A stretch of 64,000 nt of DNA from a virus (IMGVR_UViG_3300006151_000005:41516-105515); one strand, 5' to 3'; positions 23,296-59,805 are shown, counted from the stretch's first letter. Translations and numbers: made by a program. Notes: generated by a model from the sequence alone, not told the origin.

Positions 23296-23368
23296 CGCGG
23301 GTTGGAGCAGTTGGAAGCTCGCCAGTTTAACTTGCTGGAGGTCGTCGGTTCGAGTCCGACACCCGCTA
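23296..23368 (+). tRNA. initiator-type tRNA with anticodon AAC (reads GTT)
   Basis: Cloverleaf: CGCGGGT/ACCCGCT acceptor with C1xU72, GAGC/GCTC D stem, CCAGT-TTAACTT-GCTGG anticodon arm, GTCGG-TTCGAGT-CCGAC T arm, A73. CCA not encoded. Confidence 0.9.
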
Positions 23369-23396
23369 CAAATAAAATCACTTACAAACAAAATCA

Positions 23397-23768
23397 ATGA
23401 AAAAGTTAACCCTACAAATTGACAAAAAGTGCTTTCAGGCAATTCTGAAAGGCGAGCAGAAAGTCGAGCATCGGAACGTGTATCCCAATAACGCCAAGAA
23501 GTATGTCATCGAAGAAGACAAGACTGATGAAAACGGCGAAGCCATCACGGTTGTAACACCGGTTCACTACGATGCCCTCACCCTTATCAATGGTCGCCGC
23601 AAGGATGCGCCCCGTCTGACCGTGGAGGTCGTATCGGCTGAATTTGTCGTACTGACCGACGAAGACGGCAATGATTTGACCTTTGAAGAGAATGGCGAAG
23701 TGTACTATGTTTGTCAGGTATGGTACACCCTCGGAAAGGTTCTTGAAACCGCCAACATCAACGAATAA
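23397..23768 (+). CDS. ASCH domain protein
   Basis: LTLQIDKKCFQAILKGEQKVEHR (GxKxxExR-like), YDAL.LINGR. Confidence 0.7.
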   Translation: MKKLTLQIDKKCFQAILKGEQKVEHRNVYPNNAKKYVIEEDKTDENGEAITVVTPVHYDALTLINGRRKDAPRLTVEVVSAEFVVLTDEDGNDLTFEENGEVYYVCQVWYTLGKVLETANINE

Positions 23769-23795
23769 TCATTAACCCTTTAACACTATAAGTGA

Positions 23796-23996
23796 GTTAG
23801 ACGTAGAATTGATAACAACTATGGCCCCCGTCGGAACATGAACGGTGCCGGTGCCGGTGGCCGACTCGTAGCCCGTCGCACCCCTGCGGGCGTAGTTGCT
23901 GGTCGTAGCCAGCTCGGAAATCGTGAACAGCGTCGCGCTGACCTCCGCGCAGCCTTTGCTGACCAAATCCGCGCCGCTGGTGGAACAACCGGCTAA
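23796..23996 (+). CDS. 66-aa Arg/Gly-rich protein, probable GTT start (not in ORF track)
   Basis: TGA-GTT-AGA-CGT-AGA...TAA after an A/C-rich leader; internal ATG at 23838. Confidence 0.65.
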   Translation, partial: VRRRIDNNYGPRRNMNGAGAGGRLVARRTPAGVVAGRSQLGNREQRRADLRAAFADQIRAAGGTTG

Positions 23997-24006
23997 ACCC
24001 TAAATC

Positions 24007-24792
24007 ATGGCAACGCAGAATGTAAACAAGTACGCAGAAACCATGTCAATAATTCGGCGTATCCGTCAACAGACGGATACTGCCGTTTTATATTATTCAG
24101 CCGGCGGAAAGGACGGCATCGCTTTGCTTGATATGTTAGCCCCGGTTTTCAAAAAGGTTATCTGCTATTACATGTGGCTCGTGCCGGGTCTTGACCATGT
24201 GAAGCCCTATCTGCAATGGGCGGTACGGAAATACCCCAACGTTGAGGTTCGCCAGATTCAGCACTATCAGCGCGACTATTACGACCGCTTCGGATTTTTT
24301 CAGGATGGCGAGGGCGACCCAAGCATCAAGCCCCGAAAGGTAGGCGAGCTTGAGGAGGAGGTCAGACAGGAAACCGGCATCAAATGGGCGTTCAGCGGAA
24401 TGAAAGGCGTTGACGGTTACATGAAGCGTATGCGCCTTTTGACTTTCAAGAAGCGCAACGGCACATACATGACAGACAAAGGAATGGTTTACCCCCTTGC
24501 CGTCTGGACGAACAAGGAGGTGCTTCGCTATATCGAAATGCGGAATCTTATCAAGCCTTTTGTCTATAGCCCCAAAGATGTAAGTCAGGGCTTCGGCATC
24601 GATTTGCGCTCCTTGCTTGTGCTTCGGAAACGTTTCCCCCGCGACTACGAGCGCACCATCCGCGAATTTCCCTTTTGCGAAAAACTCATCTTCGACTATG
24701 AAAACGGCATACTGCCATACGGTCAGGAGAAAGAGGTCATGGAAATCATCAAGCGCATAGAAACCGAATCAGAAGAATCAGACGAAGTATGA
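24007..24792 (+). CDS. PAPS-reductase-like PP-loop protein
   Basis: YSAGGKDG PP-loop variant, SGMKGVDG, YPLAVWTNKEV. Confidence 0.7.
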   Translation: MATQNVNKYAETMSIIRRIRQQTDTAVLYYSAGGKDGIALLDMLAPVFKKVICYYMWLVPGLDHVKPYLQWAVRKYPNVEVRQIQHYQRDYYDRFGFFQDGEGDPSIKPRKVGELEEEVRQETGIKWAFSGMKGVDGYMKRMRLLTFKKRNGTYMTDKGMVYPLAVWTNKEVLRYIEMRNLIKPFVYSPKDVSQGFGIDLRSLLVLRKRFPRDYERTIREFPFCEKLIFDYENGILPYGQEKEVMEIIKRIETESEESDEV

Positions 24793-25673
24793 AGCCGAAC
24801 AAAATCAAACAGGCAGAACAGCGCACCGTCAAGCGAAGCGAAATCAACTTTGCTTCCTATAATCCACGTACCATCAGTGACGAGGCGCGAAAAAAGCTCA
24901 AGAAAAACTTACAGACCGTCGGCCTGCTGGGTGGCGTAGTCTGGAACATACGCTCCGGCAATCTTGTATCGGGTCATCAGAAAGTCAGCATCATGGATGC
25001 CGTGAACCGGTACGACGCGGAAACGGGCGCAAATGATTACGAATTTCGTGTTGAGGTCGTTGACTTCGACGATAAGACGGAAAAAGAGCAGAACCTTTTT
25101 ATGAACAACCGAGCCGTGCAGGGTACATACGACGATGATATGCTGCGCGAGCTTCTTCAAGGAATAGACTATACCAATGCCGGCTTCGACGATACCGATA
25201 TGCAGCTCCTCGGTCTTGGCGATTTCGGCGACTATGATATGGGCGATATGTTCGGCGACGATGGCAACGATGCCACGGATGGCGGCGATGCTGACGAGCC
25301 GGGCGAATCGACGGAAATCAAAGACTGGTCAAAAGATAATGTCGTTGGCGAGCGTGAAGACCTTGCAATCCACGATGAAATGACAAAGGAAAGCGGCGAG
25401 AATCATAAGCTCGACCGCAGCGCGGATTTTTATCAGGATAGCGAGGCCAACCAGATAGCCCGCCACAACGAAGTGCAGAAAATCAAAGACCGCATCGCAA
25501 GTCAGAACGATGTGAACAAGGACGGCGGCATGTTGTCCTATGTTGTCATCAGCTTCAAAACTCCGAGCGAGAAAGTGCGCTTCATGGAAGACTACGGATT
25601 TGACCCTATGGCAAAGTACATCAACGGCGAAGAATTTGTAAACAAATTGGAATTTGGCGATGATGAAGATTAA
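24789..25673 (+). CDS. ParB/sulfiredoxin-like domain protein
   Basis: YNPRTI...LKKNLQTVG...VWN..SGNLVSGHQ; acidic C-terminal half. Confidence 0.75.
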   Translation: MKPNKIKQAEQRTVKRSEINFASYNPRTISDEARKKLKKNLQTVGLLGGVVWNIRSGNLVSGHQKVSIMDAVNRYDAETGANDYEFRVEVVDFDDKTEKEQNLFMNNRAVQGTYDDDMLRELLQGIDYTNAGFDDTDMQLLGLGDFGDYDMGDMFGDDGNDATDGGDADEPGESTEIKDWSKDNVVGEREDLAIHDEMTKESGENHKLDRSADFYQDSEANQIARHNEVQKIKDRIASQNDVNKDGGMLSYVVISFKTPSEKVRFMEDYGFDPMAKYINGEEFVNKLEFGDDED

Positions 25674-25766
25674 CGCAAAAATTTAACTTTATTCTTTAAT
25701 TTAGTATTGCGCAATTAAAGAATTTTGTTTAACTTTGCATATTATACAGACACTGACAACAGAGAT

Positions 25767-26222
25767 ATGAACTACCGATTTTTAAGCAGCATAACCGACG
25801 CGGAGGTTGCGGATTTTCGCAACAGGCTCGCGGCTGAACTGGCGACACGCATGACCGGCGACGGCAAGCGTGTTATCAGTGACGAGGCCATCGGGCAGGA
25901 GGTCAACCTTAACATCTCCACGGAAGATGCGAAGAAATATCTGCAAAGCAACGACGCGGAGAATTATGACTACGCGCAGCTTGCAGACGTTATCGCGGCC
26001 AAGTACCGCACATTCAGCGATGAAGACATCATGGCCACGCGCAAGGCGATGGTCGATAAATTCATGGCTCTTGCCGATGAGTATGGCTGGGATAAAGAAC
26101 AGGCACGACGCGATGCCAAAAAGGAGTTTTACGACAACCTTTCTGACGGAACTATCCTTGAACTTCTGCGCAATGGCGAGTCGATTGAGGATTATGTCGA
26201 ATATGTAAGTATTTACGACTGA
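25767..26222 (+). CDS. hypothetical protein with its own promoter (moron-like)
   Basis: TAACTTTG promoter and operator-like site at 25715-25737. Confidence 0.55.
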   Translation: MNYRFLSSITDAEVADFRNRLAAELATRMTGDGKRVISDEAIGQEVNLNISTEDAKKYLQSNDAENYDYAQLADVIAAKYRTFSDEDIMATRKAMVDKFMALADEYGWDKEQARRDAKKEFYDNLSDGTILELLRNGESIEDYVEYVSIYD

Positions 26223-26228
26223 TAGCGA

Positions 26229-26915
26229 GTTAAAAAGCCACGTAAGACAGATTATAACGCGAGAGTCACAAAGGCACTCAAGGGAAAGGGCGTACCTCAC
26301 CTTGAAGAGCCGATGTACCGCGTATCCGCGTCGGCTTTTATAAAGGCTATAAGACGCGGCAAGGCATCGCAAGGCAGGAACGGCTGGATGGTTGACCTGC
26401 ATAGCAAAAGCGAATACAAGCGGATGCGATGCTTTCTTACTCCGGACGGAAAGACAGGTGTAGCGATAAAACGCGATGGGGATGTAGTGTCTGTATTCTC
26501 CACCAGCGGAAAACGAGGCGCAATGGCAAAAATCATACCGTTTGCGGTCGCTAATGGTGGTCGCAAACTGGATTGTTATGCTTTCTCGGATGGCCGCAGT
26601 TCACTTCACAACATGTACGGAAGATTCGGCGCAAAGGCTCACGGCAAAATGACCTTTGACCCGCAATATAATCCTGTTTTCCAACGCACGGCGCAGGCCA
26701 ATCCCGGTATGCGCAGACCCTCTCATGTCGTGGCGATGACGCTGCCGGGCAGTCTTGCCGGTGTCATGCGGGCTTACAACGCTGACAGGAAGATTGACCT
26801 TGGGCGCGTGAGGTCGTATAATGATTACGACAAGATGATGGATGACCGAAACGCGCATCTTGCACTACGCGGAAAGTCAAGCGGTGTCAGAGGCGCACTT
26901 GGCGGCGGTAAATAA
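26229..26915 (+). CDS. basic protein with possible GNAT-like domain, probable GTT start
   Basis: TAG-CGA-GTT-AAA, in frame with ATG 26313; DGKTGVAIK.DGDVVSVFS, GGRKLDCY, LHNMYGRFG. Confidence 0.6.
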   Translation, partial: VKKPRKTDYNARVTKALKGKGVPHLEEPMYRVSASAFIKAIRRGKASQGRNGWMVDLHSKSEYKRMRCFLTPDGKTGVAIKRDGDVVSVFSTSGKRGAMAKIIPFAVANGGRKLDCYAFSDGRSSLHNMYGRFGAKAHGKMTFDPQYNPVFQRTAQANPGMRRPSHVVAMTLPGSLAGVMRAYNADRKIDLGRVRSYNDYDKMMDDRNAHLALRGKSSGVRGALGGGK

Positions 26916-26937
26916 CCAACCCTAACACTACAAGAAT

Positions 26938-27531
26938 ATGGCAAAGATTGAAGAAATCATCCCGTTCATCCTTTACTTTGAAGCCGGCGTAAACAAACGC
27001 TATCTTTCACTTCCTCCCGAACAGATATTTGAGCAGGCGAAAAAGACGGGCTTCGCAAATGACCCCGACGATGCCGGCGGCGCGACCATGTGCGGTATCA
27101 CGATAGCGACCTACAAGGCGTACGGCAAGCGGAAAGGCTATCCCGTACCTACGGTGTTCAGCCTGCGTAACATCACATACAAGCGTTGGCGCGACGTACT
27201 CAAGACGCTTTTCTGGGACAGATGGAAAGCCGATGAAATCAAAAGCCAAGCCCTTGCGAACAACCTCGTCGATTGGGTGTGGGCAAGCGGCGTGAACGGC
27301 ATCAAGATACCGCAGAGGCTTCTCGGCGTGACACAGGACGGAATTGTCGGCCCAAAGACGATAGCCGCAGTCAACGCAGCCAACGAAGCGGAACTATTCA
27401 CGAAGATTTACGAAGCCCGCATCAATTTCGTGGATGGCATCGTGCGCAGAAAGCCGAGCCAGAAGAAATTCATCAAGGGCTGGAAACGACGCATCAACGC
27501 TATCACCCTATCCGGGCTGAAATTCACATAA
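26938..27531 (+). CDS. endolysin, glycosyl hydrolase family 108 with PG-binding region
   Basis: FEAG...NDPDDAGGATMCGIT, QRLLGVTQDGIVGPKT, KFIKGWKRRI. Confidence 0.85.
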   Translation: MAKIEEIIPFILYFEAGVNKRYLSLPPEQIFEQAKKTGFANDPDDAGGATMCGITIATYKAYGKRKGYPVPTVFSLRNITYKRWRDVLKTLFWDRWKADEIKSQALANNLVDWVWASGVNGIKIPQRLLGVTQDGIVGPKTIAAVNAANEAELFTKIYEARINFVDGIVRRKPSQKKFIKGWKRRINAITLSGLKFT

Positions 27532-27562
27532 TGCTAAAACCGCAGAAAGGAGGTGTTCTAAA

Positions 27563-27622
27563 ATGAAATCGCGCAAATCGTGTGGAGGCAAGAAGAAGCC
27601 CGGAAAGGGCGGTAAGTGTTGA
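27563..27622 (+). CDS. 19-aa Lys/Gly/Cys micropeptide MKSRKSCGGKKKPGKGGKC
   Basis: Strong SD AGAAAGGAGGTG at 27544-27555, 7 nt before ATG. Confidence 0.45.
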   Translation: MKSRKSCGGKKKPGKGGKC

Positions 27623-27690
27623 AAACCCTAAAACAACAACGGTCAGTCGGAATAAACCCCGGCTGACCATCACCCTTAAAATACAAGATA

Positions 27691-27978
27691 GTTAGACGCA
27701 GACGTACACCATCAACAAGAACTATGGCATACTACACCGGTAGCTATGCAGACCAGAACATGATGTCACCATACGGAATGGGATATTCTCAGTCACAGGT
27801 GGCAATCAACAATCGCGCACAGGCTCTCCGTCGTCGTGTTGGCGATATGAACGTTTCATCATCCCAACGGCAAAGGTATTACGATATAATAGGCCGAGCC
27901 AATGGCAATATGTTTCAGGCAATAAGAACTGCAACGGGGGGGCAAATGACCACTTCCCAATTAGGTTATGCGTGTTAG
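27691..27978 (+). CDS. small basic protein, probable GTT start (VRRRR...)
   Basis: ATA-GTT-AGA-CGC-AGA, in frame with ATG 27724; N-terminus parallels the 23796 ORF. Confidence 0.55.
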   Translation, partial: VRRRRTPSTRTMAYYTGSYADQNMMSPYGMGYSQSQVAINNRAQALRRRVGDMNVSSSQRQRYYDIIGRANGNMFQAIRTATGGQMTTSQLGYAC

Positions 27979-28038
27979 AGAACCGGTCATCTCGCCGTCA
28001 CATGACGGAAATAGCAAGTTCGACTCTTGCACACGCAG
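27969..28038 (+). ncRNA. tRNA-like element with 4-nt anticodon loop (ACAT)
   Basis: TGCGTGT/ACACGCA, GAGA/TCTC, CCGTC-ACAT-GACGG, GCAAG-TTCGACT-CTTGC. Confidence 0.7.
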
Positions 28039-28069
28039 CATAGAAGATTAAAATTTCATTATCACGACG

Positions 28070-28741
28070 ATGCCGAAGAAGCGAATTAGTAGCAAAACAC
28101 CGCGCAAGCCCAAAGCCACACCCTCGTTTGATTATGAGAGTGAGGAATTTTTGTCGCAGGTCGATGCACTTGCTTTTGAGGGCTTTTACAATACGGAAAT
28201 TGCTGACGAACTGAACATTAGCCGATACGAATTGGAAATGGCGATTTCACAATGCGAAAAATTGCGCAACACGATAGCGTCTGCACGCGAGCGTGCGCGT
28301 GCGCGAGGCGCAGAAATGCCATCTCCGGCTATGTTTGCAAAGGTCTGGGCGAAGTGTAACGGAAAGCGCACTCAGCTGATGAAAGAATTTGGAATCGGCT
28401 GGACGAAGCTACAATCGTGGCTGGCACAAGAACCTATTTTCGTCGATATTATGGCGGAACGCGACCTTGAATTTCTGGAACAGATAGATGTCGCCAGTCG
28501 CATCCTTGCCTTGGGTGGCGTAAAAGGAAAAGACAATTTCGCCGGCTGGAGCAGATACCCCGATAGTTGGATGATTCGCTTTCATCTGAATACACTCGGA
28601 AGACGCTACGGCTATGGCGAGAATCCCATACAACCGGAAGTTGAAGATGACGGTATTCCAAAAAATGTTGAGCAGGGCATCGACATTGATAGCTGGATAA
28701 AGCAAGAAGTGGAACAGAAGAAACGGGATAAAGAAGAATGA
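28070..28741 (+). CDS. probable terminase small subunit
   Basis: HTH (NTEIADELNIS); coupled directly upstream of TerL. Confidence 0.6.
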   Translation: MPKKRISSKTPRKPKATPSFDYESEEFLSQVDALAFEGFYNTEIADELNISRYELEMAISQCEKLRNTIASARERARARGAEMPSPAMFAKVWAKCNGKRTQLMKEFGIGWTKLQSWLAQEPIFVDIMAERDLEFLEQIDVASRILALGGVKGKDNFAGWSRYPDSWMIRFHLNTLGRRYGYGENPIQPEVEDDGIPKNVEQGIDIDSWIKQEVEQKKRDKEE

Positions 28742-30036
28742 TTATCAACCATGAGATATATTACCCCCTCTATACTGACAAGGAACATTTCATCATCCTT
28801 GTCACGGGTGGTCGTGGCTCTGGTAAATCATTCGGAATCGGCGGTTTCTTGGAACGCCTATCATTTGAGCTGAAACGCAAGGGTCTATCCAAAGCGGAAT
28901 CAGACAAGATTGTGCATAAAATCCTCTATACGCGCTACACTATGACCAGTGCGAGCATTTCCATTATACCTGAATTTTTGGAAAAGATAGAGCTTGACGG
29001 CACGACCCGGTACTTCCATACGACCAAAACCGACATCATAAACAAGATGACCGGTAGCCGTATTATGTTCCGTGGCATCAAAACATCATCTGGCAATCAG
29101 ACCGCAAAGCTGAAATCCATCCACGGCATCACGACCTTTGTATGCGATGAGGCCGAGGAGTGGACTTCCGATAGGGAATTTGAAACAATCGCCTTTTCAA
29201 TCCGTCAGGTTGGAATCCAGAACAGGATTATCATCATTATGAACCCTACGGATAGCAACCACTTCATCTATCAGAAATACATCAAGGACACGCACAGGAT
29301 AGAATACTTTGACGGAGTGCCGGTGCAGATTTCCACGCATCCTCAAGTGCTTCATATCCATACAACGTATCTTGACAATAAGGAAAATCTTTCGGAAGAA
29401 TTTATCAGGTCGGCTCAAGAAATGAAAGAGCGCGACCCGGAACGCTACGGCCACATCTTCATGGGCAGATGGGCAGACGTAGCCGAGGGTGCGGTCTTCA
29501 AGAAATGGGGCATTGTCAGCGAATTTCCAAAGAACTGCAAGCATGTTGCTCGCGGTCTGGACTTCGGATATACCAACGATGTCAGCGCGTGTGTAAAATG
29601 CGGCGTAATCGGCAACGACCTTTACATCGACGAACAGATATTTGAAACCGGACTACTTTCCAAAGACCTCATAAGGAAATTAAGCGAGGATGATTCATTC
29701 GTTTACGCCGATAGTGCAGACCCGCGACTGATTGACGAAATAGCTCTCGGCGGCATAATCATCTACCCCGTGGCGAAGCCAGCCGGAAGCATCATTGCCG
29801 GTATTGAGAAGATGAAATCCTTTGACAACATCTTTGTTACGAAGCGGTCACTGAACGTGCAGGAAGAATTGCGCAACTATGTATGGGCGAAAGATAAGGA
29901 TGGCAATTACATCAACATGCCGGAAGATGCCAATAACCACTCTATCGACGCAACCCGGTATTATGTGCTTGGCTGCATCCTCGGCAAGATTCTCAAGCCG
30001 AAGAAAGTCAAGAAGTCAGATTTAGGAATATTCTAA
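28738..30036 (+). CDS. terL: terminase large subunit (PBSX family)
   Basis: TGGRGSGKS, CDEAEE, MNP, GLDFGY, DSADP, NHSIDATRY. Confidence 0.95.
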   Translation: MIINHEIYYPLYTDKEHFIILVTGGRGSGKSFGIGGFLERLSFELKRKGLSKAESDKIVHKILYTRYTMTSASISIIPEFLEKIELDGTTRYFHTTKTDIINKMTGSRIMFRGIKTSSGNQTAKLKSIHGITTFVCDEAEEWTSDREFETIAFSIRQVGIQNRIIIIMNPTDSNHFIYQKYIKDTHRIEYFDGVPVQISTHPQVLHIHTTYLDNKENLSEEFIRSAQEMKERDPERYGHIFMGRWADVAEGAVFKKWGIVSEFPKNCKHVARGLDFGYTNDVSACVKCGVIGNDLYIDEQIFETGLLSKDLIRKLSEDDSFVYADSADPRLIDEIALGGIIIYPVAKPAGSIIAGIEKMKSFDNIFVTKRSLNVQEELRNYVWAKDKDGNYINMPEDANNHSIDATRYYVLGCILGKILKPKKVKKSDLGIF

Positions 30037-30047
30037 CAACACCAGAT

Positions 30048-31505: not shown

Positions 31506-32000
31506 TATCTGCCATTGTTGTCATATCTGGATGCGTCACGTCTGAGTTAAAGGCGTGGCGCATTGTTTTACGCTATCAGCGCAAAATCAGCGCGTTAAAG
31601 CAAACACTTTTATTAACAATAGTTAAAAGTAAGTATTTACTTTAATATTTTCGCTAAAATATTTGGTGGATAAAAGTAAAAGCATTAACTTTGCATCGTA
31701 ATCAATAACAAACCCCAATAAGTAAGAAGTTATGAAACTTAAAGACAATGGCCAAATCGCAATCGACTCGGCAGACATACTGAAACAGAATCGCTATCGT
31801 TTTGAAATCGATACAGAAGACATCGTGATGGGCTTCGCTAAAACGATGAAAACGACAACGCGCAACGTTCAAAAAGCAATCAACATGATTAAAAAGGTGT
31901 GCAACGACTGCGGCACTTTCATCTCGCCCAGTGTGCGCATTGTAAGCGTCAGAATGTATCAGAACAACGAACTCGTTAAATCCCTTAACGCTTAATCAGT

Positions 32001-32225
32001 ATGGCAAGAAAACACGACTACATGCTATTAGGTCGCCTTTTGTGCGACTGCAAGTATTATCTTGGCAACGGCAATCGTAAGGCCAAACATCTATGGGCTG
32101 GCGACGAGCAAGAGCAGATAGATAAGATGCGCGAGCTATGGGATGCAATGCCGGCAGACGGCAAACCAGAATGGCTCACAAGAGAACAGATTGACAACTA
32201 CGCCAAACAGATGGGCGTTAAATGA
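32001..32225 (+). CDS. LPD11-like (large polyvalent protein-associated domain) protein
   Basis: YMLLGRL.CDCKYYLGNG...HLWAG...KPEWLT.EQID.Y. Confidence 0.7.
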   Translation: MARKHDYMLLGRLLCDCKYYLGNGNRKAKHLWAGDEQEQIDKMRELWDAMPADGKPEWLTREQIDNYAKQMGVK

Positions 32226-32759
32226 TATGGCTATGGCAAAAGCAAAATACAACCTCGTTACAACGACAAGAACAACCGCCGGCGCGGAGTCGCAGTACGT
32301 CAACCCGCTTGGCTCGGTTGAAACCGACGGAATGGAAGATGTTATCCTTGCATGGTGCATCATCGACTATTCAAATGCCCTTATGAAGAAGCTCAGGAGT
32401 GAGGGCTACAAGGTCGCCAACGTTGAAGACTATCAAGATTTTCAATGGCGCAAAATTACCCTGTCTGACGGCACGACAATGACCATAACCACTCAAGCAG
32501 CGTAATATGTTAGCCACGGATAAGCAAATCAACTATCTGCAACAGTTAGCGGATAAGGTAGAGCGGATGCACAAGGCGCACCCCGGCGCGGTCAAGTGCA
32601 AAACCCCATACATCGACTGGCATACGGAACGACACAAGGGCGTGACAACACTGGATGCCTCAATCAGAATCAAGGCATACAAGACCATAATCCGGGAAAC
32701 CAATTTTACTTTCATGCTTCTTGGCTTCGCCCAGATGTAACCCCAAAGAATAGCGAATA

Positions 32760-33020
32760 ATGGCAACACTTATAAAGGCAGACGGAACGCAGACCGTCGT
32801 ACACCCACAAGCCGGCATCGGCAAAAAGTTTACCCTCAAAGAAATGCAGACCTTTGTTGATGGCTACGTGCAATACATCTACCTTGAAAGCGGAAAGATA
32901 GCCGTGGTCAATGAAGAGGGGCGCATCATAGGGCTTAAACCTAACGCCCGCGCAAGCCTTGTAACCGGCTACAATCTTGTTGGCGATGTCTTAATTTGCG
33001 ATAATGGCGAATTAGATTAG
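32760..33020 (+). CDS. DUF3846-like protein
   Basis: FTLKEMQTFVDGYV, VVNEEGR, PNARAS, LVGDVL. Confidence 0.7.
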   Translation: MATLIKADGTQTVVHPQAGIGKKFTLKEMQTFVDGYVQYIYLESGKIAVVNEEGRIIGLKPNARASLVTGYNLVGDVLICDNGELD

Positions 33021-40660: not shown

Positions 40661-41941
40661 TCATTGTTGTTTGATTTCAGCAGTCACGCCGTCAGTGCCG
40701 GTCACGTCTGCCGGATTAATCGCTTTCGCGGAATCGGGATTTTCAACAGCCATCGACAATTCTAAATCGCAGAAGCCTTTGCAAGCTCCGCGATAGCCGT
40801 TGAAAAATTCAATGGCGGTCATGCGTCGCTTGTTCGGCATCTGCAATTCAAGCACGGAAATAAGCTCGTCGCCACAGGCGATGTATAACTTGCGGTCTTG
40901 CCAGAACAACTCGCCGGGTGCATGATAGCCACGCGGTATGCCGGTCTTTTCCGTCTTGAATATCTTGACGCTTATTGCCTGCTTTCCAAGCATTGCCAGC
41001 GAAGTCCATGCCGATGGGATGGGCGTAAGTGCGCGTATGAAGTCATAGACGTAATTGGCAGGCTTGAGCCACGGAATGATGCAGTCCTTTCGGTGTAGCT
41101 TCGGCGCGTAGCAGGGCTGGATGAAGTCGCAGATAAGCTCCGATTGTGGGATGGGTCTGCAAGAATGGGCTATGCGCTGAATTGCATCGTCCATCATTTC
41201 CGCACCGGCTATGCGCAATTTGATGTGAACGTCTTCCGCGTTGTCATCCTCATCGATGCCGATGGCGAGATTGTTGATGATGCCGCCAGTATCGATTTTG
41301 TCTTCAAGCATGAACGTAGTCACGCCGGTCATGCTGTTACCGTCCTTGATAGCGGATGCGATGGTGGAAGCACCGCGATACATGGGCAGCATGGACGAAT
41401 GGAGATTGATTGTTCCCCACTTCGGAATGGTGTATAGCGCACGTGGCAGTATTCTGAACTCCACCACTACGCCAAGCGTAGCATGAAGATTGTGGATGTG
41501 CCGCAGAAACCTGTTGGAGTCGAGCTTCCGTGGCTGAAAAACAAGGATACCCATAGACTCTGCATAGACCTTGACCGCAGACTTGCGCACGACCTTTCCG
41601 CGACCGAAGGGCTTATCCTCCATCGTTACCACGGCGGCGACATCATAGCCGCGCTCTACAAGTATCTTGAGGGTTGGTAGGGCGAACTGTCCGTTTCCGA
41701 AAAACACGATGCGGATGCCCTTCCGTTCTACCGGCTTGGACGAGTCGTATTCCGGATAGGCTACGATTTCCGTTTCATCAGCAGCCGTGTAACCGCCATT
41801 ACGCAGACGCACCAAGTATGAGCCATCTTCTACCGGGTATAGAATCTGACCCTGACTTAGTATTCCTTTGTCTTCATTCGCGCATAACAGGCTTGATGGA
41901 ACTTGTACCGATTGCCCTACGCGATAGATGGGCGTTTTCAT
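40661..41941 (-). CDS. fmt: methionyl-tRNA formyltransferase-like protein with extra ~75-aa N-terminal domain
   Basis: RIVFFGNGQFA, DKPFGRG, INLHSSMLPMYRGA, IDTG, YAPKL, IRALTP.PSAW, ELQMPNKRRM..IEFFNG. Confidence 0.9.
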   Translation of the reverse strand: MKTPIYRVGQSVQVPSSLLCANEDKGILSQGQILYPVEDGSYLVRLRNGGYTAADETEIVAYPEYDSSKPVERKGIRIVFFGNGQFALPTLKILVERGYDVAAVVTMEDKPFGRGKVVRKSAVKVYAESMGILVFQPRKLDSNRFLRHIHNLHATLGVVVEFRILPRALYTIPKWGTINLHSSMLPMYRGASTIASAIKDGNSMTGVTTFMLEDKIDTGGIINNLAIGIDEDDNAEDVHIKLRIAGAEMMDDAIQRIAHSCRPIPQSELICDFIQPCYAPKLHRKDCIIPWLKPANYVYDFIRALTPIPSAWTSLAMLGKQAISVKIFKTEKTGIPRGYHAPGELFWQDRKLYIACGDELISVLELQMPNKRRMTAIEFFNGYRGACKGFCDLELSMAVENPDSAKAINPADVTGTDGVTAEIKQQ

Positions 41942-53013: not shown

Positions 53014-53590
53014 ATATCGCGGTAAATGCTTGCAAACCCATGAGTGGGTTTACGGCTCGCTTATCCAAGGAAAAGTGGACGATGGAACGATTCTATCATT
53101 TATCGTTCCCGGTTTGCCATGCGCACAAGAATCCAATGATTTCTGGACTACAAAAATGTATCCGGTAGATACGAAAACAGTAGGACAATTTACGGGCGTA
53201 TTCGATGTAAAAGGTACACCCATCTACGAGAATGATTTGGTTTTGGCAGCAGAGGATTTATCCGGAAGTATTATTCAATGGGGTTTATGCGAGGTCTTTT
53301 ATTTCTGCGAAGATAAGGATGACCCAACTGGCGATGTTGGCTTTTGGTTGGAAGTTGGTTATCCATCGGGCTATCGATATAATCAACTATCGGCTTACAA
53401 ATTGAATTACCATCGCGTTGTTGGAAACATTCACGACGATGACCATCTTTTTCATCAAGATTTTATAGATGTTTATGGCAAATGTATATTCTACCTCGGC
53501 GATTGGTGGGCAAGCGAGAATGATGATAGCGACCATAAGCTCCAAAAGCATCTTAAAGAACTTAAACAAAAGAATCGGAAAAACAAATGA
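53000..53590 (+). CDS. YopX family protein
   Basis: YRGK, WVYGSL, TVGQFTG, IYENDL, VVGNIHD. Confidence 0.8.
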   Translation: MKTNKYRGKCLQTHEWVYGSLIQGKVDDGTILSFIVPGLPCAQESNDFWTTKMYPVDTKTVGQFTGVFDVKGTPIYENDLVLAAEDLSGSIIQWGLCEVFYFCEDKDDPTGDVGFWLEVGYPSGYRYNQLSAYKLNYHRVVGNIHDDDHLFHQDFIDVYGKCIFYLGDWWASENDDSDHKLQKHLKELKQKNRKNK

Positions 53591-54033
53591 TAGCAAATAA
53601 AGACCTTGTAAGTGGTGATTACGTCAATCTTGATGCTGCTATTGCCTTGAGTAAGGTTGGCTATGACGTGCCGACGCATACTCATTACACCGGATATAAG
53701 GGTTACGGAAGCGTCAGCCTTACATCCAACACTGAAAAGCTGACAGGTGTAGGCAGTATGGTTGATAGACCCATCTTGCAAAAGGCGGTGGAATGGCTGC
53801 GCGAGCGTCGCAACATCTGCCTACGCATCAACTACGTCATGCAGACGCGCAAGTGGTTTTTCGACTACCTGAATATGAAAGATGGGAGCTATGACGATAG
53901 CACATCCACCTACGATGACACAACGGGCTATTACGATAGTTACAACGATGCCGTCAACGCCGGAATAGTTGCCATCTGCGAACACATCAAGGACAATGAA
54001 GATACGACAGGCGAAGAAAATCCTATTGGGTAA
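53587..54033 (+). CDS. hypothetical protein
   Basis: ORF; P.LQKAVEWLRE motif. Confidence 0.5.
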   Translation: MIANKDLVSGDYVNLDAAIALSKVGYDVPTHTHYTGYKGYGSVSLTSNTEKLTGVGSMVDRPILQKAVEWLRERRNICLRINYVMQTRKWFFDYLNMKDGSYDDSTSTYDDTTGYYDSYNDAVNAGIVAICEHIKDNEDTTGEENPIG

Positions 54034-54176
54034 GAATACATCCCGCGACTGCTACCGCCGTACGCGCCCCGCCTATGAACGCGAAGACGGCACTATGGTA
54101 TTTCCATCATGGCATGACATTCCACGGATAGCAAGGGTGAACAAACGACTACTCAGATACATTAACCGATTAAGCA

Positions 54177-55010
54177 ATGAAGACAAAGAAAAACTTCTTT
54201 AAGGGTAAATCCTTATACCGACCCACCGGCAAGGCTGGCGAATATTCCGCTTGGGCTTGCAACTTCTATACCGGGTGTTCAAATAACTGTTCATAATGCT
54301 ACTGCAAGCGTGGCGTTATGAGCCATGTATGGAGCGAAGAGCCGATGTTTAAAAAATGCTTCAAGGACAACGACCATGCCATAGCGGTGTTTGAAAAGGA
54401 AATGCTCGCAAACATCGACGAACTGCGTAAGACGGGCATCTTTTTCAGCTTCACTACCGACCCCATGATACCCGGCAAGACGCTTGAGCTTACGATGGAA
54501 GCGGTCAGCCTTGAGCTGCGTAATGACGTGCCGGTGCAGATACTTACCAAACGTGCGGATTGGCTTGATGCCGAGACGTGGAAAGCCATGTGCGCTACCA
54601 TCAATCCCGACTACAAGAAAATCGCCATTGGCTTCACACTGACAAGGCGTGATGACCTTGAGCCGGGTGCAAGTCCGCATACGGAACGCATAGCCGCCAT
54701 GAAGCGTTGTCACGAACTGGGATGTCACACTTTCGCAAGTATTGAGCCGATTGTCGATATAGCCAATTCGGAATGGGCGATGAGTGATGCCTATCCCTAC
54801 TGCGAACTGTTCAAGGTTGGTCTGATGAGCGGCGGCGCGAAACCCGACAAGCACGAACTGAAAACACTTGTTGACAGATGGAATAGCACACTTGACAAGT
54901 CAGGCAAGAAGATATATTGGAAGCAGAGCGTAGTTGACTATCTGGGCGATGATTTCAAGTTCTGGATGGACTCCTGCGTAGATGCCGACTACAACATATT
55001 CGACTATTAG
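54177..55010 (+). pseudogene. radical SAM protein with in-frame TAA inside the CxxxCxxC motif
   Basis: ATG 54177...NFYTGCSNNCS*CYC (TAA 54294-54296), then FSFTTDP, ILTK, ASIEP. Confidence 0.75.
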
Positions 55011-55109
55011 TATTGTTTTAAGGTAAATAAGATTGTTATTATAAATTGTACTTTTGCGGAGCGTGTCGTTGTGAAACGGTGCGCTTTTTTCGTTCTATTC
55101 CGTAGAAAG

Positions 55110-55183
55110 TTACGACCAAATAAATAAAGTCGTGAGTGTGCGTTTCCTTAATAATGTGGTTGCTTTATTTAGTCGTAGTTTTG
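55110..55183 (+). promoter_or_regulatory. putative late promoter: TTACGAC-N12-GTCGTGA plus -7 TAGTTTTG
   Basis: Same layout as 23209 and 20938. Confidence 0.65.
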
Positions 55184-55214
55184 CGTAGAATACTTAAACC
55201 CCAAACTACATCCA

Positions 55215-55961
55215 ATGAAAGCTAAAATCTTTGCAAAACTAAAACAGGAGTATTCCTCTCTTGGGTTAGGCGATGAATATCTGATGTCAAAAGCCGATTC
55301 CCTTGCAGCGACCGGTCTTGTGACTGACGATAACATCGATGCTGTCGTGGCTTGCCAGCGTAAGGAGCTTGAGGGTCTTCAGAAAGCCAACGATAAGCGC
55401 GTCACTGATGCGCTTGAAAAAGAGCGTAAGAAGCATGAAGAAGAAACTCGCAAAAAGGAGCAGGAAGCCGAAGAAGCCCGTCGCAAAGCCGAGGAAGAAG
55501 CCGCCGCCAAAAAGAAAGGCGAGCATACCGACCCGGTTACAAACCCCGACGTTGAAGCCCTCCGCAAGCAGGTGGAAGAGCTGACCGCCGCCGGCAAGAA
55601 GCGCGACGAAGAATATGCGGCCAACCTGAAAACGCTTACCGAATCACGTGACAGTCTTGGAAAGCAGGTCAAGGAACTTGTTGACAAGAACGCCGCATCG
55701 GAAGCAGCCGCAGCCAAGGCAGCACGCAATGCGATGATAATGGCGAAAGCCAAAGAGTTGGGCGTTCCCCAGTGGCGTATCGACGAGGGCTTCACAATCG
55801 CGGAAGACGCGAGCGAGGAGGTCATCACCGAAACGCTGACAAAGGTTGCGAACAATATCAACACAAACATCCTGCCGGGTAGTCGTGGCGGATTCCCCCT
55901 CGCCGGCAACGAGCCGACTAAGGAAGACCTCGCTTCGATAGCTGCAAGCCTTGTTAAGTAA
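55215..55961 (+). CDS. capsid scaffolding protein
   Basis: Charged coiled coil at the start of the head operon. Confidence 0.65.
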   Translation: MKAKIFAKLKQEYSSLGLGDEYLMSKADSLAATGLVTDDNIDAVVACQRKELEGLQKANDKRVTDALEKERKKHEEETRKKEQEAEEARRKAEEEAAAKKKGEHTDPVTNPDVEALRKQVEELTAAGKKRDEEYAANLKTLTESRDSLGKQVKELVDKNAASEAAAAKAARNAMIMAKAKELGVPQWRIDEGFTIAEDASEEVITETLTKVANNINTNILPGSRGGFPLAGNEPTKEDLASIAASLVK

Positions 55962-55983
55962 CAACTAAACCCCAACGAGAATT

Positions 55984-56430
55984 ATGAAAAATGACATCTC
56001 ACCCAACAAGGAAACGGTTGTCTTCGGTAATGATTCCTCAGTAATCCGCAAGTACATTGCCGGCATCGCCGGTGGTCGTACACTGGACTGCTCGGATTTT
56101 GTCGATGACACTGTTCTCGCCGGCCACGTCATCATCAAAAAGGCCGACGGAAAGTATGCCCCGATGCCCGTCATCGCGGCTGTTCCCGCGAAGCCCGCAC
56201 AGGGCGAAAACCCTACTGTTGCGGCTCAGCCCGCCAAGTACGGCACACTCCCTACCGGCGCATCCTACGCCGGCGTTCTCTATCGCTCAATCAGTAAGAA
56301 AAACCCCGCTGCTTCCATTATGACGATAGGTATTGTCAATCCCGACATGACCCCCTATCCCATGACAGACATCCTGACCGCGTTCACGGCTGCCTGCAAA
56401 ATTTCCTTTGAAAAGGACGAAGAAGCATAA
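55984..56430 (+). CDS. head decoration protein
   Basis: Between scaffold and capsid; GGRTLD, AGHVII, GVL. Confidence 0.6.
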   Translation: MKNDISPNKETVVFGNDSSVIRKYIAGIAGGRTLDCSDFVDDTVLAGHVIIKKADGKYAPMPVIAAVPAKPAQGENPTVAAQPAKYGTLPTGASYAGVLYRSISKKNPAASIMTIGIVNPDMTPYPMTDILTAFTAACKISFEKDEEA

Positions 56431-56445
56431 AAACCGAGTATCTGA

Positions 56446-57534
56446 GTTAAACAGTCATTCTATTTCGATTACGCGCAGAAATACTTCCCCGGCCTCGTTC
56501 TGGCCGTGGTTGAACGTCTGAACGAAAAGCGCAACAACTCCGCGCAGACGTATCTCTACAAAGAGAAACTTCGCCCCCAGTTCTCGCTTGATGGTCGCTG
56601 GGCTTCCATTCTTGCCGAATACACCCGTGTAGCCGCCGACGTTGTGGCACTTGACTCCGAGCTTCCGCTCAAGAGCCGTGACACGCTGGAGGTTGCTTCC
56701 GGCACTATCCCCAAGATAGGTATGAAGCTCTACCTGACCGAAAAGCAGATGAAGGACGTTGATTCGATGATTGCACAGGGTCTTCCCCTTGAAACCATCA
56801 TCAACAACATATTCGCCGACACCCCCCGTTGCATCGAGGGCATCTGGGAGCGCATCGAAGACATCTTCCTTTCCGAGCTTTCGTCCGGCGTGGGCATTTC
56901 CGAACGTAACAACGGCACCGGCGTGCGCATCAACATGAACTTCTATGAGGCCAATCAGTTCCTCGTATCGGCTCTGTGGAGCGCAACTACCGCCACACCG
57001 CTTGACGACATTCAGAAAGTCGTTGACAAGTCCATCGAAGACTCCAACACCATCATCGACGCATACGCCGACGATACCGCCCTCCAGCTTCTTTACAAGA
57101 ACGGTCAGGTGCGTGCGCAGTTTGCCTTTGACCAAGGCATCGCCATGACTGCATCAACAGCCATCCCCGTGCTTGACCTTTCCAAGCTCCAGCAGCTTTT
57201 CCTCACCAAGTGGAACATCCGTCTGCACCGCGTTTCGCGCCGTGTGAAGACCGAGCTTAACGGAGTTAAGCAGAACCACAACCCGTGGAAGAAAGGCACT
57301 ATTACCTTTGTCTGCGATGAAGAGCTTGGCTCGCTTGTATGGACTAACGTCGCCGAAGTCAACCGCCGTGTTGATGGTGTAGTCTATCAGGTAGCCGACG
57401 AATACATCCTTGCAAAGAAGTATTCCAAGACAGACCCCCTCCGCGAGTTCACCGCTTCCGAGGCTATGGTTGTCCCCGTGTTGAACAACGTTGACCGTAT
57501 CTATACGCTCGACTCTCAGACCGTTCAGGAATGA
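56446..57534 (+). CDS. major capsid protein, probable GTT start (VKQSFYFDY...)
   Basis: Position and size (362 aa); AADVVALDSELPLKSR, GTIPKIG. In-frame TGA directly precedes GTT; first GTG is 20 codons in. Confidence 0.85.
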   Translation, partial: VKQSFYFDYAQKYFPGLVLAVVERLNEKRNNSAQTYLYKEKLRPQFSLDGRWASILAEYTRVAADVVALDSELPLKSRDTLEVASGTIPKIGMKLYLTEKQMKDVDSMIAQGLPLETIINNIFADTPRCIEGIWERIEDIFLSELSSGVGISERNNGTGVRINMNFYEANQFLVSALWSATTATPLDDIQKVVDKSIEDSNTIIDAYADDTALQLLYKNGQVRAQFAFDQGIAMTASTAIPVLDLSKLQQLFLTKWNIRLHRVSRRVKTELNGVKQNHNPWKKGTITFVCDEELGSLVWTNVAEVNRRVDGVVYQVADEYILAKKYSKTDPLREFTASEAMVVPVLNNVDRIYTLDSQTVQE

Positions 57535-59234
57535 AAGCAACCATCCTCGTACCTTTCCGCGACAAATACGACCATGCAGTCGTGTATGCGCCCGGAGATG
57601 TAAAGGAATTTGACAATGACCGCGCAGTGGCACTGGTCGCTCGCGGTCTTGTCGAACCCCTTGCAGAAGCTCCCAAAGAACCCGAAGAAAAGGCAGAAGC
57701 CGACGCGAAGCCCGCCAAGCCTAAAGGTAAGGGCAAAGGTAAATCCACCAAAAAGGAAAAGGAAGTCGCCGATGCAGCTCCCGAAGCCGATAAGGTAGAA
57801 GCCGATGCCGACACCGAAGCTGACGCGCCCGAAGAAGCAGAAGCCGAAGATTCCAACGATAACGAATAATACCGATGACAATACGCGCTTACATAACCGA
57901 TAAGTTGAAAGCCTACGGAATCACGGAGGCGCAGCTTGTCGATTTGTCTATTTCGTCCGGGTTGAAACTTGACTCCGATGTCATGGATAACGACCCCACC
58001 GCAGTAGGCATTGCACTGACGCAGACGCTTGAGGAGTGCATCCTTGCGCCGCGACTGTCAAGTGTAAGCGAAAGCGGGTTTTCGATGTCGTGGAACTACG
58101 ACTCCGTGGGCAAGTATTACCTTTGGCTTTGTCGTAAATGGGGCGTGACCCCTAACGATGATGTCTTGGGTATGCTTGGCATTTCCACTATTATAGACCG
58201 CACCGATAATTGGTAAAAGCATGTACTACGCACCCCACATATTGCAGAAGCGCATTATCGCCGAGGAGAAGTCGGATGAATTTGGAAGACCTATTCCAGA
58301 AGAAGCTGGCGACTCTTGGGTGGAAGTGTGCCGATGCAGATGTGACCACAATGGGGATAAAGAAGTCAAGATGCCCGATGGCACGGTCGTAACGCCGGAA
58401 TATCATGTTGTCCTTGAGGACAACGAACCGGATATTGAAGTCGGCGATTACGTGCGTTGTCTGAAAGCAGACGGAACTATCCGTGGCGAGGGTCGTGTCA
58501 TTAAGCCGAAAACATTAAACTATCTGCCTTATGCGGAGATCTATCTGTAAGTTTGACTTTAGCGACGTGCGCCCGGCTTTAGCTCGCTTTCATCGTGATA
58601 TGCGCAAACAAGTTGAGCGCGTAGGTCAGGAAGCCGTGGATTACGCAGTTGAGCATGGCGATTACCATGATGTCACCGGCGAAACACGCGCCAGCAATCG
58701 TTACAAGGTTGATGCCAACAACAATCTGACCATCTATAACGAGTGCGACCACGCCGCAGAACTTGAGGCAAACGGCAAAGATGTTATTGGAAACGCGGCT
58801 TTATTCGCAGAACAACGACTTAAAGAGATTTTTGAATGATTACCACCACTGACGCAGCAAACATCCTTTACACCGCCTGCAAAAATATCTTCGGGATGCC
58901 AGTTTATCAGGCCGGCAATATTCCCGCCGGTAAGGTAGGCAAGGATGGTCGCGTAGTTATCCACACCAAAGAGCATAGCCCCGGCTCCACATGGAAGAAA
59001 GGATTCATCGAAGTCAATTTATTTGTCGCTGACACACCACAGGGCAACGCCAATCTAACCCGGCTTAACGAGCTTGAACGTATGGCGACCAAATCCCTCA
59101 AGGATATGGGATGGCATGACGGAACGGCTTACCGCTTTGAAGTGGCTTCTACGATACCGATGGAAAATGTCAATCTGAAAGCCCACTACATTAACACCAA
59201 AGTGCTTTTCAAAGTGCTTAATACAATGGAATAA
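57531..59234 (+). other. head-tail connector and tail completion genes (57531-57869, 57875-58216, 58221-58550, 58531-58839, 58836-59234)
   Basis: Typical size and order between capsid and major tail; SVSESGFSMSW adaptor motif. Confidence 0.7.
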
Positions 59235-59259
59235 TTAACCCCTTAACACCCATACACGA

Positions 59260-59805
59260 GTTGAAAATTCACCTAAAGTTTGCGCAGTAGGCATCAAAAA
59301 ACTGTACTATGCTGACCCCAGCAAAGTGACCGCAGACCTTACCGGCGCACTCCTTGCCGCCCTGCTCAAAGACGCGGCCACAAAGGAGGTCAAAAACATC
59401 CATCAGGACACGTGGACTATCGAGGAAAGCGAGTCGTCGCAGGACGGCTATCGCAACCAGCTTACCGGCTCGATTTACCGCATGGGAACAAAGACAATGG
59501 GCGACGTAACGTTCAACTGGACTATCGGCCAGTACGACTACGCCACTAAAGCCGAGTTCCTTGGTGGTGTAGCTACCGCTAAGTCGTGGAAACGTCCTCG
59601 CGGCATCGTCGAAATCCACAAGACCCTCATCGCGCTGACCGAAGACAATCAGTATTGCGTACTTCCGTATGCCAATATCGCCGGTCGTGAGGCAAACACT
59701 GACGGCGCAGTCGGCATCGGCATCGTCGGCACAGCAATGGAGCCGGAAAACGATGCAGTATCGTCCGAATACTGGTTTGACTCCTCCGAGGTAGTATCCG
59801 CGTAA
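59260..59805 (+). CDS. major tail protein, probable GTT start (VENSPKVCAVGIKKLYYAD...)
   Basis: In-frame TAA at 59236; no in-frame ATG/GTG/TTG until 59326. NIHQDTW, FNWTIGQYD; hairpin terminator ~59842-59872. Confidence 0.75.
   Translation, partial: VENSPKVCAVGIKKLYYADPSKVTADLTGALLAALLKDAATKEVKNIHQDTWTIEESESSQDGYRNQLTGSIYRMGTKTMGDVTFNWTIGQYDYATKAEFLGGVATAKSWKRPRGIVEIHKTLIALTEDNQYCVLPYANIAGREANTDGAVGIGIVGTAMEPENDAVSSEYWFDSSEVVSA

Follow-up and report, generated by a model that had tools for sequence, protein, structure and literature searches.

A phage-encoded initiator-type tRNA with anticodon AAC as the probable basis of GUU translation starts in a Muribaculaceae phage

Herein we report that a ~105-kb phage of mouse-gut Muribaculaceae (105,515-bp genome, with two tRNA-like genes only) very probably uses an initiator tRNA(AAC) of its own to start its capsid, tail tube and other genes at GUU with valine or formyl-valine. 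Our analysis concerned a 64,000-nucleotide stretch of this genome (the window), for which an original prediction had put forward a phage-private initiation code consisting of this tRNA, a phage methionyl-tRNA formyltransferase (Fmt) and five late genes opening at GTT, and this core reading is supported at the level of sequence comparison. The tRNA has the anatomy of an initiator, its anticodon co-varies with the start codon among related phages, GTT stands at N-termini that are defined by homology, and fmt co-occurs with capsid genes that start with GTN (Table 1). The whole has the appearance of a natural private start codon, a thing seen before as a laboratory design: in the literature we found no natural one, which agrees with what the prediction had supposed, and met only with engineered Escherichia coli i-tRNA(AAC)/GUU systems.

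Table 1 Features located in the window, with positions counted from its first nucleotide.
Feature	Position	Strand	Evidence or relation
Initiator-derived tRNA, anticodon AAC	23296..23368	+	ARAGORN, Rfam, 19-sequence alignment
Leader motif, TTAACCC-TTAACAC type	23772..23786	+	Ends 9 nt before GTT 23796
Small Arg-rich protein, 66 aa, opens TGA-GTT	23796..23996	+	~430 nt downstream of tRNA
228-aa protein, weak phrog_2563 match, opens CGA-GTT	26229..26915	+	V1-to-V1 orthologue alignment
95-aa basic protein, opens ATA-GTT	27691..27978	+	Start context and orthologues
Long-form methionyl-tRNA formyltransferase homologue, 426 aa	40661..41941	-	Pfam, TIGR00460, alignments
XRE/Cro-type HTH gene overlapping fmt start	41938..42252	-	Pfam HTH_3, 53.6 bits
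Major capsid protein, 362 aa, opens TGA-GTT	56446..57534	+	Pfam Phage_cap_E, phrog_29
Leader motif, exact copy	59235..59249	+	Ends 10 nt before GTT 59260
Tail tube-like protein, 181 aa, phrog_14600, opens CGA-GTT	59260..59805	+	PHROG profile

An initiator body with a replaced anticodon arm

The predicted AAC tRNA with initiator and formylation hallmarks was recovered both by ARAGORN, as a tRNA-Val(AAC) at 23296-23369, and by the Rfam tRNA model (48.6 bits over 23296-23368). The tRNA closely resembles the host Muribaculaceae tRNAfMet in the acceptor, D, variable and T arms, while the anticodon arm has been swapped, and the gene encodes no CCA end. With the tRNAfMet of the host and of E. coli (metZWV/metY) it shares an unpaired C1 (here opposite U72), G2:C71, C3:G70, A11:U24 and A73. 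These hallmarks hold over an alignment of 19 sequences, in which all 20 cloverleaf pairs show 100% pairing, 12 of them with compensatory changes. Position 1:72 is unpaired in 19/19, with U, C or A and never G at position 72; one sequence has U1 opposite U72, and the remaining acceptor pairs are kept in all 19. Among the formylation determinants, A11:U24 and G2:C71 are present in 19/19 and C3:G70 in 18/19 (U:G in one). An unpaired 1:72 disfavours elongation, whereas a paired 1:72 goes with the use of EF-Tu.

The anticodon arm departs from that of tRNAfMet in its AAC instead of CAU (loop UUAACUU), in having U37 instead of A37, and in the stem, where the three consecutive G:C pairs (29-31 with 39-41) present in the host tRNAfMet are missing from the window tRNA and are replaced by A29:U41, G30:C40 and a closing U31.G39. 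In E. coli the three G:C pairs of the initiator are needed for P-site selection and IF3 proofreading, and a U at position 37 is abnormal in any tRNA. All phage copies have U37, and U31.G39 is found in 17/17 phage tRNAs. An ordinary tRNAfMet charged by MetRS was rejected on the anticodon and the absent G:C pairs, and an elongator tRNA-Val on the unpaired 1:72 together with U37 in all phage copies. The ValRS identity elements A35, C36 and A73 are invariant alignment columns; that they would suffice for ValRS in Bacteroidota is carried over from work in E. coli.

GTT openings of the capsid, tail tube and small proteins

The five GTT openings originally listed are all present, with in-frame stops 0, 1, 8, 0 and 7 codons upstream of the GTTs at 23796, 26229, 27691, 56446 and 59260, respectively, and with no ATG, GTG or TTG between stop and GTT at any of the five sites. 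The first canonical start follows, in the same order, 14, 28, 11, 20 (GTG at 56506) and 22 (GTG at 59326) codons downstream. One further GTT start, the sixth, is found beyond the window, and the remaining genes of the phage start with ATG. Since a naive genome-wide tally of open frames without a canonical start did not single out GTT, the case for GTT starts is comparative and not compositional.

For the capsid, the prediction had asked whether GTT would align with the Met1 of homologues, and it does so exactly, facing the ATG of Met1 in seven relatives at 49-64% identity. Every relative at 72-100% identity has GTT as its capsid start, as do two distant fmt-bearing contigs (L173 and L174, both opening CGA-GTT); in a contig with a TAC tRNA the codon is GTA. 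Public gene callers put the starts of the L173 and L174 capsids at a downstream GTG or ATG. For the tail tube, positions 4-177 of the 178 in the phrog_14600 profile span residues 7-180, the orthologues in the related phages G001 and G002 open with CGA-GTT and have their first canonical start 38 and 76 codons in, respectively, and in G003, which lacks the tRNA, the orthologue has an ATG no more than two residues from the GTT position.

The smaller proteins behave similarly. The N-terminal 14 residues of the 23796 protein are conserved, with synonymous changes in their Arg, Gly and Pro codons. The 228-aa protein has an orthologue in G001 (40% identity) that aligns V1 on V1, opens AGA-GTT and has its first canonical start 16 codons in. 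The least supported of the five sites is 27691, with its ATG 11 codons downstream; its orthologue in a Lepagella muris prophage opens TGA-GTT with identical N-terminal residues, a small protein of G001 at the equivalent position, beginning VRRR-, likewise opens with GTT, and the start context GTT-AGA-CG is common to 27691 and 23796.

It could be argued that the true starts are the downstream GTG or ATG codons, that the sequence upstream is a non-coding leader and that the tRNA is an odd elongator tRNA-Val, as the choices of the public callers for the two distant capsids and the proximity of the ATG at 27691 would suggest. However, the segments before the first canonical start are conserved at the protein level with synonymous changes, and correspond residue for residue to the N-termini of ATG-starting relatives, while the PHROG profile spans the tail N-terminus and the G002 tail would be 76 residues shorter; we find downstream starts scarcely credible.

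The GTT starts that we favour also have a context of their own. Position -1 is A at 6/6 GTT sites versus 34% at 73 ATG starts of this phage, and position -2 is G at 5/6 versus 15%. The leader motif, in turn, precedes ATG and GTT starts alike at a distance of 8-10 nt, and the genome yields seven hits where shuffling predicts 2.25.

Co-variation of anticodon and start codon in related phages

A tRNA search in which the anticodon was left open returned 78 GAC, 12 AAC and 4 TAC. Both the co-occurrence of tRNA, fmt and unusual starts in related phages and the co-variation of anticodon and start codon, which the original prediction had offered as checks on itself, were borne out. Over more than 90 loci, which represent related phages and not independent events, AAC goes with GTT, GAC with GTC and TAC with GTA, and no mismatch between anticodon and start codon was found. 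Orthologues of the 23796 gene beside the tRNA start with GTT in 10/10 AAC loci and with GTC in 54/54 GAC loci; the capsid and small genes of TAC-tRNA contigs start with GTA, and relatives without the tRNA use ATG. The start codon thus follows the resident initiator-type anticodon, as a natural, tRNA-matched private start codon would.

Were GUU read as a start by the host initiator tRNA, or through context-driven non-canonical initiation, the phage tRNA would be unrelated, for instance an elongator supplement or a defence decoy. Rare natural non-canonical starts do exist (e.g., the GTC of Streptomyces sigR), and several of the phage starts have a conserved leader motif before them. This explanation is nevertheless very unlikely, given that GUU and AUG differ at two positions, that the start tracks the resident anticodon in three states with no exception found, and that the unpaired 1:72 is conserved. 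Nor does valine codon use give any reason for an elongator supplement, GTT accounting for 23% of valine codons in the AAC phage G000 and GTC being the rarest, at 13%, in the GAC phage G004.

Phage Fmt and a proposed route to GUU initiation

The divergent fmt of the original prediction was recognised by Pfam (Formyl_trans_N, 99 bits; Formyl_trans_C, 64.5 bits) and, marginally, by NCBIfam TIGR00460 (202.8 bits versus a cut-off of 201.5), and homologue alignment backs the ATG at 41941 as its start. The protein comprises a 75-aa N-terminal beta-barrel, a catalytic domain and a C-terminal tRNA-binding domain. It shares with E. coli Fmt (PDB 1FMT/2FMT; TIGR00460) the two-domain core, the catalytic Asn, His and Asp and the Arg loop (GRG) that reads the acceptor end, residues that are conserved over 17 sequences, and differs from it in being ~100 aa longer, in the small N-terminal beta-barrel and in family-specific motif changes. 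The long-form phage family (391-434 aa) is 40-45% identical to the Muribaculaceae host Fmt, and its changes fall in motifs lining the active site that are conserved in the host enzymes.

The fmt gene is present in the AAC phages G000, G001, G002, G006, G007 and G010, in the TAC phages G011 and G012 and in L173 and L174. Six complete GAC proviruses, whose capsids start with ATG and other genes with GTC, lack it, as do G008 (AAC lineage) and G013 and G014 (TAC lineage); Fmt is therefore not essential to the system. Among the sampled phages, it occurs only where the capsid starts with GTT or GTA, down to 42% Fmt identity. Separated from the tRNA by 17 kb and apart from the late genes, the gene forms an operon with the HTH regulator, an arrangement that fits poorly with a simple 'late module'; the HTH_3-fmt pairing is conserved in the distant relatives L172-L174.

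These observations leave some room, as a minority possibility, for a private GUU start that is real and an Fmt with no specialised role in it, being instead a general formylation booster where host one-carbon supply or Fmt is limiting, a marker of a ~100-kb phage lineage, or an enzyme for another substrate. The fmt-less phages use matched non-AUG starts all the same, the gene is remote from the tRNA, and in its catalytic residues and tRNA-binding loop the enzyme is an ordinary Fmt. On the other side stand the restriction to GTT/GTA capsids, the altered active-site-lining motifs and extra beta-barrel of the long form, and the fact that formylation limits initiation by i-tRNA(AAC) in E. coli.

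In the route that we propose, a host-type tRNAfMet would have become a dedicated phage initiator by replacement of its anticodon arm, and so would read GUU. Host enzymes would process the tRNA and add CCA, and host ValRS would charge it with valine through A35, C36 and A73. The Val-tRNA could then be formylated, most likely by the phage's own long-form Fmt; formylation is possible because the determinants (unpaired 1:72, G2:C71, C3:G70 and A11:U24) have been kept. IF2 would deliver the tRNA to GUU start codons in the P site of the 30S subunit, where the conserved G-A before GTT could bring U37 and U38 of the loop into the pairing. In the window, at least five genes (capsid, tail tube, both small basic proteins and the 228-aa protein), and one gene outside it, would consequently begin with valine or formyl-valine. 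Loading with fMet, by analogy, is unlikely, since the engineered E. coli i-tRNA(AAC) from the Jaschke laboratory initiates at GUU only and with valine and formyl-valine; charging and formylation are its bottlenecks, and over-expression of ValRS and Fmt helps (bioRxiv 10.1101/2021.05.25.445580; 10.64898/2025.12.21.695813).

The phage and engineered versions have in common an initiator body, anticodon AAC and a GUU start, with valine or formyl-valine proposed here. Unlike the engineered one, the phage version is natural, virus-encoded and conserved over a phage clade; it has the whole anticodon arm replaced (no three G:C pairs, U37/U38, U31.G39) where the engineered tRNA has three changed bases, and adds a divergent Fmt with an extra domain and the G-A start-site context. 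A further parallel is the stop-codon recoding of crAss-like and Lak phages, in which (PMC10879173) a phage tRNA likewise alters the meaning of a codon in a mostly late subset of genes in a Bacteroidota host, although there stop codons are read in elongation and here a sense codon would be used for initiation. Stop-codon recoding itself was not seen in our phage: table 11 gives intact frames in the window, and we found no suppressor tRNA.

As to the role of the system, our guess is that it ties virion-protein synthesis to the phage and keeps it private to the phage; the tRNA may be late, and a lock against premature expression or a bypass of defence may be among the functions of the system, as the original prediction had raised. 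A stronger version, which we hold tentatively and consider doubtful, is a self-contained module of three parts, in which the entire anticodon loop pairs with a 5-7-nt context in place of the three-G:C/IF3 checkpoint, a valine-adapted Fmt has a Tudor/SH3-like domain that helps in selecting the tRNA, and a set of highly expressed virion genes is started solely by the module. If this were true, virion genes would be silent in the lysogen, and virion output would persist through a shutdown of AUG initiation or of the host tRNAfMet, whether the phage or a host defence had caused it.

Initiator body and anticodon arm of the phage tRNA

Host-type tRNAfMet genes were found in Muribaculaceae and Bacteroides genomes that bear related prophages, and compared with these the phage tRNA has nearly the same acceptor, D, variable and T arms, the anticodon stem-loop alone being different. 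In an alignment of 17 distinct phage copies and two host initiators, all 20 cloverleaf pairs are formed in each of the 19 sequences (12 of them via compensatory changes), positions 1 and 72 are unpaired throughout (position 72 is U, C or A, never G) and A11:U24 is invariant. Unlike canonical initiators, the phage tRNA does not have three G:C pairs in its anticodon stem; in all phage copies the stem is closed by U31.G39, and the loop reads U-U-N-A-C-U-U, with a U at position 37. Judged by its sequence, the molecule is an initiator with a new anticodon arm. It would carry valine and be formylated, as its identity elements and the engineered E. coli initiator that reads GUU (i-tRNA(AAC), Jaschke laboratory) suggest. 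A role as a codon supplement was also considered, and the valine codon use of the phage gives it no support.

The tRNA is followed by a phrog_625 gene, the small Arg-rich ORF, a PAPS-reductase-like gene, a ParB/methylase-like gene, an unnamed 165-aa ORF, the 228-aa ORF, the endolysin, a small basic ORF, a second tRNA-like element, a 223-aa ORF without known family, the large terminase and the portal. This order, together with the position of the capsid, connector and tail genes, places the GTT-opening genes among packaging, lysis and virion genes. The window makes up the final 64 kb of the 105,515-bp virus record. Its frames are intact under the standard bacterial code, and since the ORFs are well formed (table 11), stop-codon recoding was ruled out as the cause of the odd frame openings.

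Features of the phage genome and of related contigs (window positions unless stated)
Feature	Position	Strand	Remark
2211-aa ORF	14239-20874	-	
tRNA, anticodon AAC	23296-23368		tRNA-like gene 1 of 2 in the whole 105,515-bp genome
Leader motif copies	23772-23786, 31977-31991, 45472-45486, 51322-51336, 59235-59249		15 nt
Small Arg-rich ORF	23796 (start)		GTT
165-aa ORF	25725-26222		
228-aa ORF	26229 (start)		GTT
Site 3 gene	27691-27978		GTT
tRNA-like element	27969-28039	+	tRNA-like gene 2 of 2
223-aa ORF	28070-28741		
Formyltransferase (Fmt)	40661-41941	-	
Radical SAM protein	44693-45475	+	Pfam Radical_SAM, 38 bits
Capsid, connector, tail genes	55-60 kb		
Capsid	56446 (start)		GTT
Tail tube	59260 (start)		GTT
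Sixth GTT-opening gene	20981 (genome position)		20,534 nt ahead of window start
Capsid call, related contig	L173:382-1443		public annotation
Capsid call, related contig	L174:4285-5274		public annotation
tRNA-like sequence	L031:1501-1602 (= G001:15028-15129)		102 nt
Cluster of five tRNAs	L001:5678-6113		MT835576.1

The second tRNA-like element has good acceptor, D and T arms and an anticodon loop of just 6 nt; it overlaps the stop of the site 3 gene, lies shortly 5' of the 223-aa ORF and is kept in two related loci (L005 and L007). Its homologue on the related contig L174 has three more loop bases and a C at position 33, is called Cys GCA by ARAGORN, and co-varies in its stems with the window copy. 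The L031 sequence scores 48.9 bits with the Rfam tRNA model without an ARAGORN call, and looks like a tRNA with a ~30-nt insertion in the anticodon region. One tRNA of the cluster in L001, an ATG-capsid relative from human faeces, has a four-base anticodon (tggt) according to ARAGORN. Elsewhere in the genome, the 2211-aa ORF shares 58% identity with a protein of the AAC-tRNA relative G002 and a distant likeness with ~1650-aa proteins in the related phages G004 and G005; upstream of the window the genome has two further giant ORFs, of 2276 and 1966 codons.

Probable GTT starts and their co-variation with the anticodon

The capsid frame opens TGA-GTT and its protein aligns with relatives from residue 1 (tblastn). 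As originally predicted, the capsid GTT falls on the Met1 ATG of seven relatives at 49-64% identity; the relatives at 72-100% identity all have GTT there, despite a differing second codon and upstream sequence. For the tail tube, the PHROG profile spans residues 7-180 of the GTT-started protein, the orthologues in the AAC-tRNA relatives G001 and G002 open CGA-GTT with their first canonical start 38 and 76 codons in, and in the tRNA-less relative G003 an ATG lies no more than two residues away from the corresponding site. The 228-aa protein aligns V1 to V1 with its G001 orthologue (40% identity), and in the small Arg-rich gene the opening codon immediately follows a TGA in all four genomes under comparison, the 14 residues ahead of its first ATG being conserved with synonymous changes. 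Site 3 is the weakest case because an ATG lies only 11 codons in; an orthologue in Lepagella muris shares its N-terminal residues, in a frame opening TGA-GTT, and the positional counterpart in G001 was discarded as an orthologue since homology ends after the first six residues. The sixth gene (84 codons) opens AGA-GTT, 25 codons ahead of its first ATG; a variant of the leader motif described below precedes it, and its conserved G001 counterpart opens CGA-GTT.

The GTT sites share a start context, with A at -1 in 6/6 and G at -2 in 5/6, against 34% and 15%, respectively, at 73 confident ATG starts of the same genome (chance ~0.0015 and ~0.0004, sites taken as independent), and G-A likewise stands just ahead of GTC and GTA starts in related phages. 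This G-A could pair with U37 and U38 of the tRNA loop, and such extended pairing would make up for the missing anticodon-stem G:C pairs. PMC10018350 reports that the E. coli initiator pairs with mRNA over four bases. At 8-10 nt ahead of several ATG starts stands a 15-nt leader motif of the TTAACCCCTTAACAC type, and it keeps this distance ahead of the GTT of the small Arg-rich and tail tube genes. The leaders are A-rich and lack a Shine-Dalgarno sequence, as is usual in Bacteroidota. A genome-wide count over all codons of open frames lacking a canonical start near the upstream stop did not single out GTT (10 versus a mean of 14.6; with G-A context, 6 versus a median of 2, level with other codons), a count that is uninformative because shadow frames dominate.

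IMG/VR was searched with the tRNA body, leaving the anticodon open, and only valine anticodons were returned (GAC 78, AAC 12, TAC 4; 18 distinct sequences). The orthologue of the small Arg-rich gene adjoining the tRNA starts with GTT in 10/10 AAC loci and with GTC in 54/54 GAC loci, counts that come from related phages and are not independent events. On TAC-tRNA contigs GTA starts are present on several small basic genes, and a capsid orthologue there opens TGA-GTA. In two more AAC lineages, L120 and an Algoriella MAG, GTT opens a small gene whose counterpart in a TAC lineage starts with GTA. Capsids of GAC phages in the same family keep ATG, and the tRNA-less G003 has ATG on both capsid and tail. 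A GTC start of the portal gene in the GAC phage G004 was rejected, as its downstream ATG aligns with the window portal ATG and the G-A context is missing. The expectation that anticodon and start codon co-vary was thus borne out (AAC/GTT, GAC/GTC, TAC/GTA) with zero exceptions, and a pattern of three codon states across several genes is hard to explain otherwise. We consider it likely that these genes truly start at GTT and that the phage tRNA reads this codon.

A long-form formyltransferase alongside the proposed GTN starts

The Fmt ORF contains both Fmt domains and scores barely over the fmt equivalog cut-off. Alignment to E. coli Fmt shows that the catalytic residues (Asn, His, Asp) are kept, as is the loop that bears Arg. 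Database searches returned two populations: a long form (391-434 aa), on phage-like contigs or prophages where looked at, and the ordinary Bacteroidales Fmt (304-329 aa, 40-45% identity). Three motifs that do not vary among host enzymes show conserved changes in the long form. Its 75-aa N-terminal domain is modelled as a small beta-barrel (pLDDT 84). A fold search matched this domain to small beta-barrels in a generic way only (Z up to 8), with a likeness to Tudor, SH3, KOW and PWWP domains from which a function cannot be inferred, and an ESM Atlas look-up gave no usable match. In the window and in distant relatives alike, the start of fmt overlaps an XRE-type HTH gene. A radical SAM gene lies near the HTH-fmt pair in L174, and another a few kb off in the related contig L173. 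A peptide deformylase was searched for in the phage and none was found.

As predicted, tRNA, fmt and odd starts co-occur in related phages. Fmt is present in six AAC and two TAC phages of the capsid lineage and, at 42% and 52% Fmt identity, on two distant contigs with capsid frames opening CGA-GTT, but it is absent from six CheckV-complete GAC proviruses, one AAC lineage and one TAC lineage. Since matched starts occur in some lineages that lack it, a private start codon (a GTN start matched to a phage-encoded initiator tRNA) does not depend on Fmt. In the phages sampled, Fmt accompanies the private start codon on the most abundant virion proteins, a link drawn from lineages with this capsid family; other tRNA-bearing lineages (G008, G013-15, G020) lie outside it, and a capsid search there found nothing, their capsids being unrelated. 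Initiation by i-tRNA(AAC) in E. coli is limited by formylation and charging (bioRxiv 10.1101/2021.05.25.445580; 10.64898/2025.12.21.695813), a limit that fits the presence of Fmt alongside GTN-start virion genes. We favour, with modest confidence, the phage Fmt being a dedicated formylase.

Host, novelty and possible roles

The Muribaculaceae bacterium Isolate-036 (Harlan) carries an identical tRNA and a 95%-identical Fmt on one contig; this isolate is a lysogen available in culture. Related prophages occur in Lepagella muris, Paramuribaculum intestinale and other Bacteroidota. For annotation, the consequence is that gene callers shorten or miss major virion genes: the public capsid calls on L173 and L174 begin 10 and 33 codons into a frame opening CGA-GTT, at an internal GTG or ATG, which indicates that pipelines truncate these proteins systematically.

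In the textbook view, one universal initiator tRNA(CAU) sets start-codon identity. To our knowledge, natural code variation is known for stop codons and for sense codons in elongation, not for initiation, and a literature search for natural private initiator tRNAs returned engineered systems only. If true, natural recoding would gain a new class: a virus-borne initiator tRNA for GUU, with GUC and GUA taking its place in sister lineages. In part of the lineages, the recoded initiator would be accompanied by a matching formyltransferase. For synthetic biology, the tRNA, Fmt and start context would offer evolved parts for orthogonal initiation. Any role as a timing lock or a way round defences is speculative, given that fmt shares an operon with the HTH gene and that the tRNA is a putative late gene. 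For phage biology, it would provide a concrete mechanism by which a phage could control late translation.
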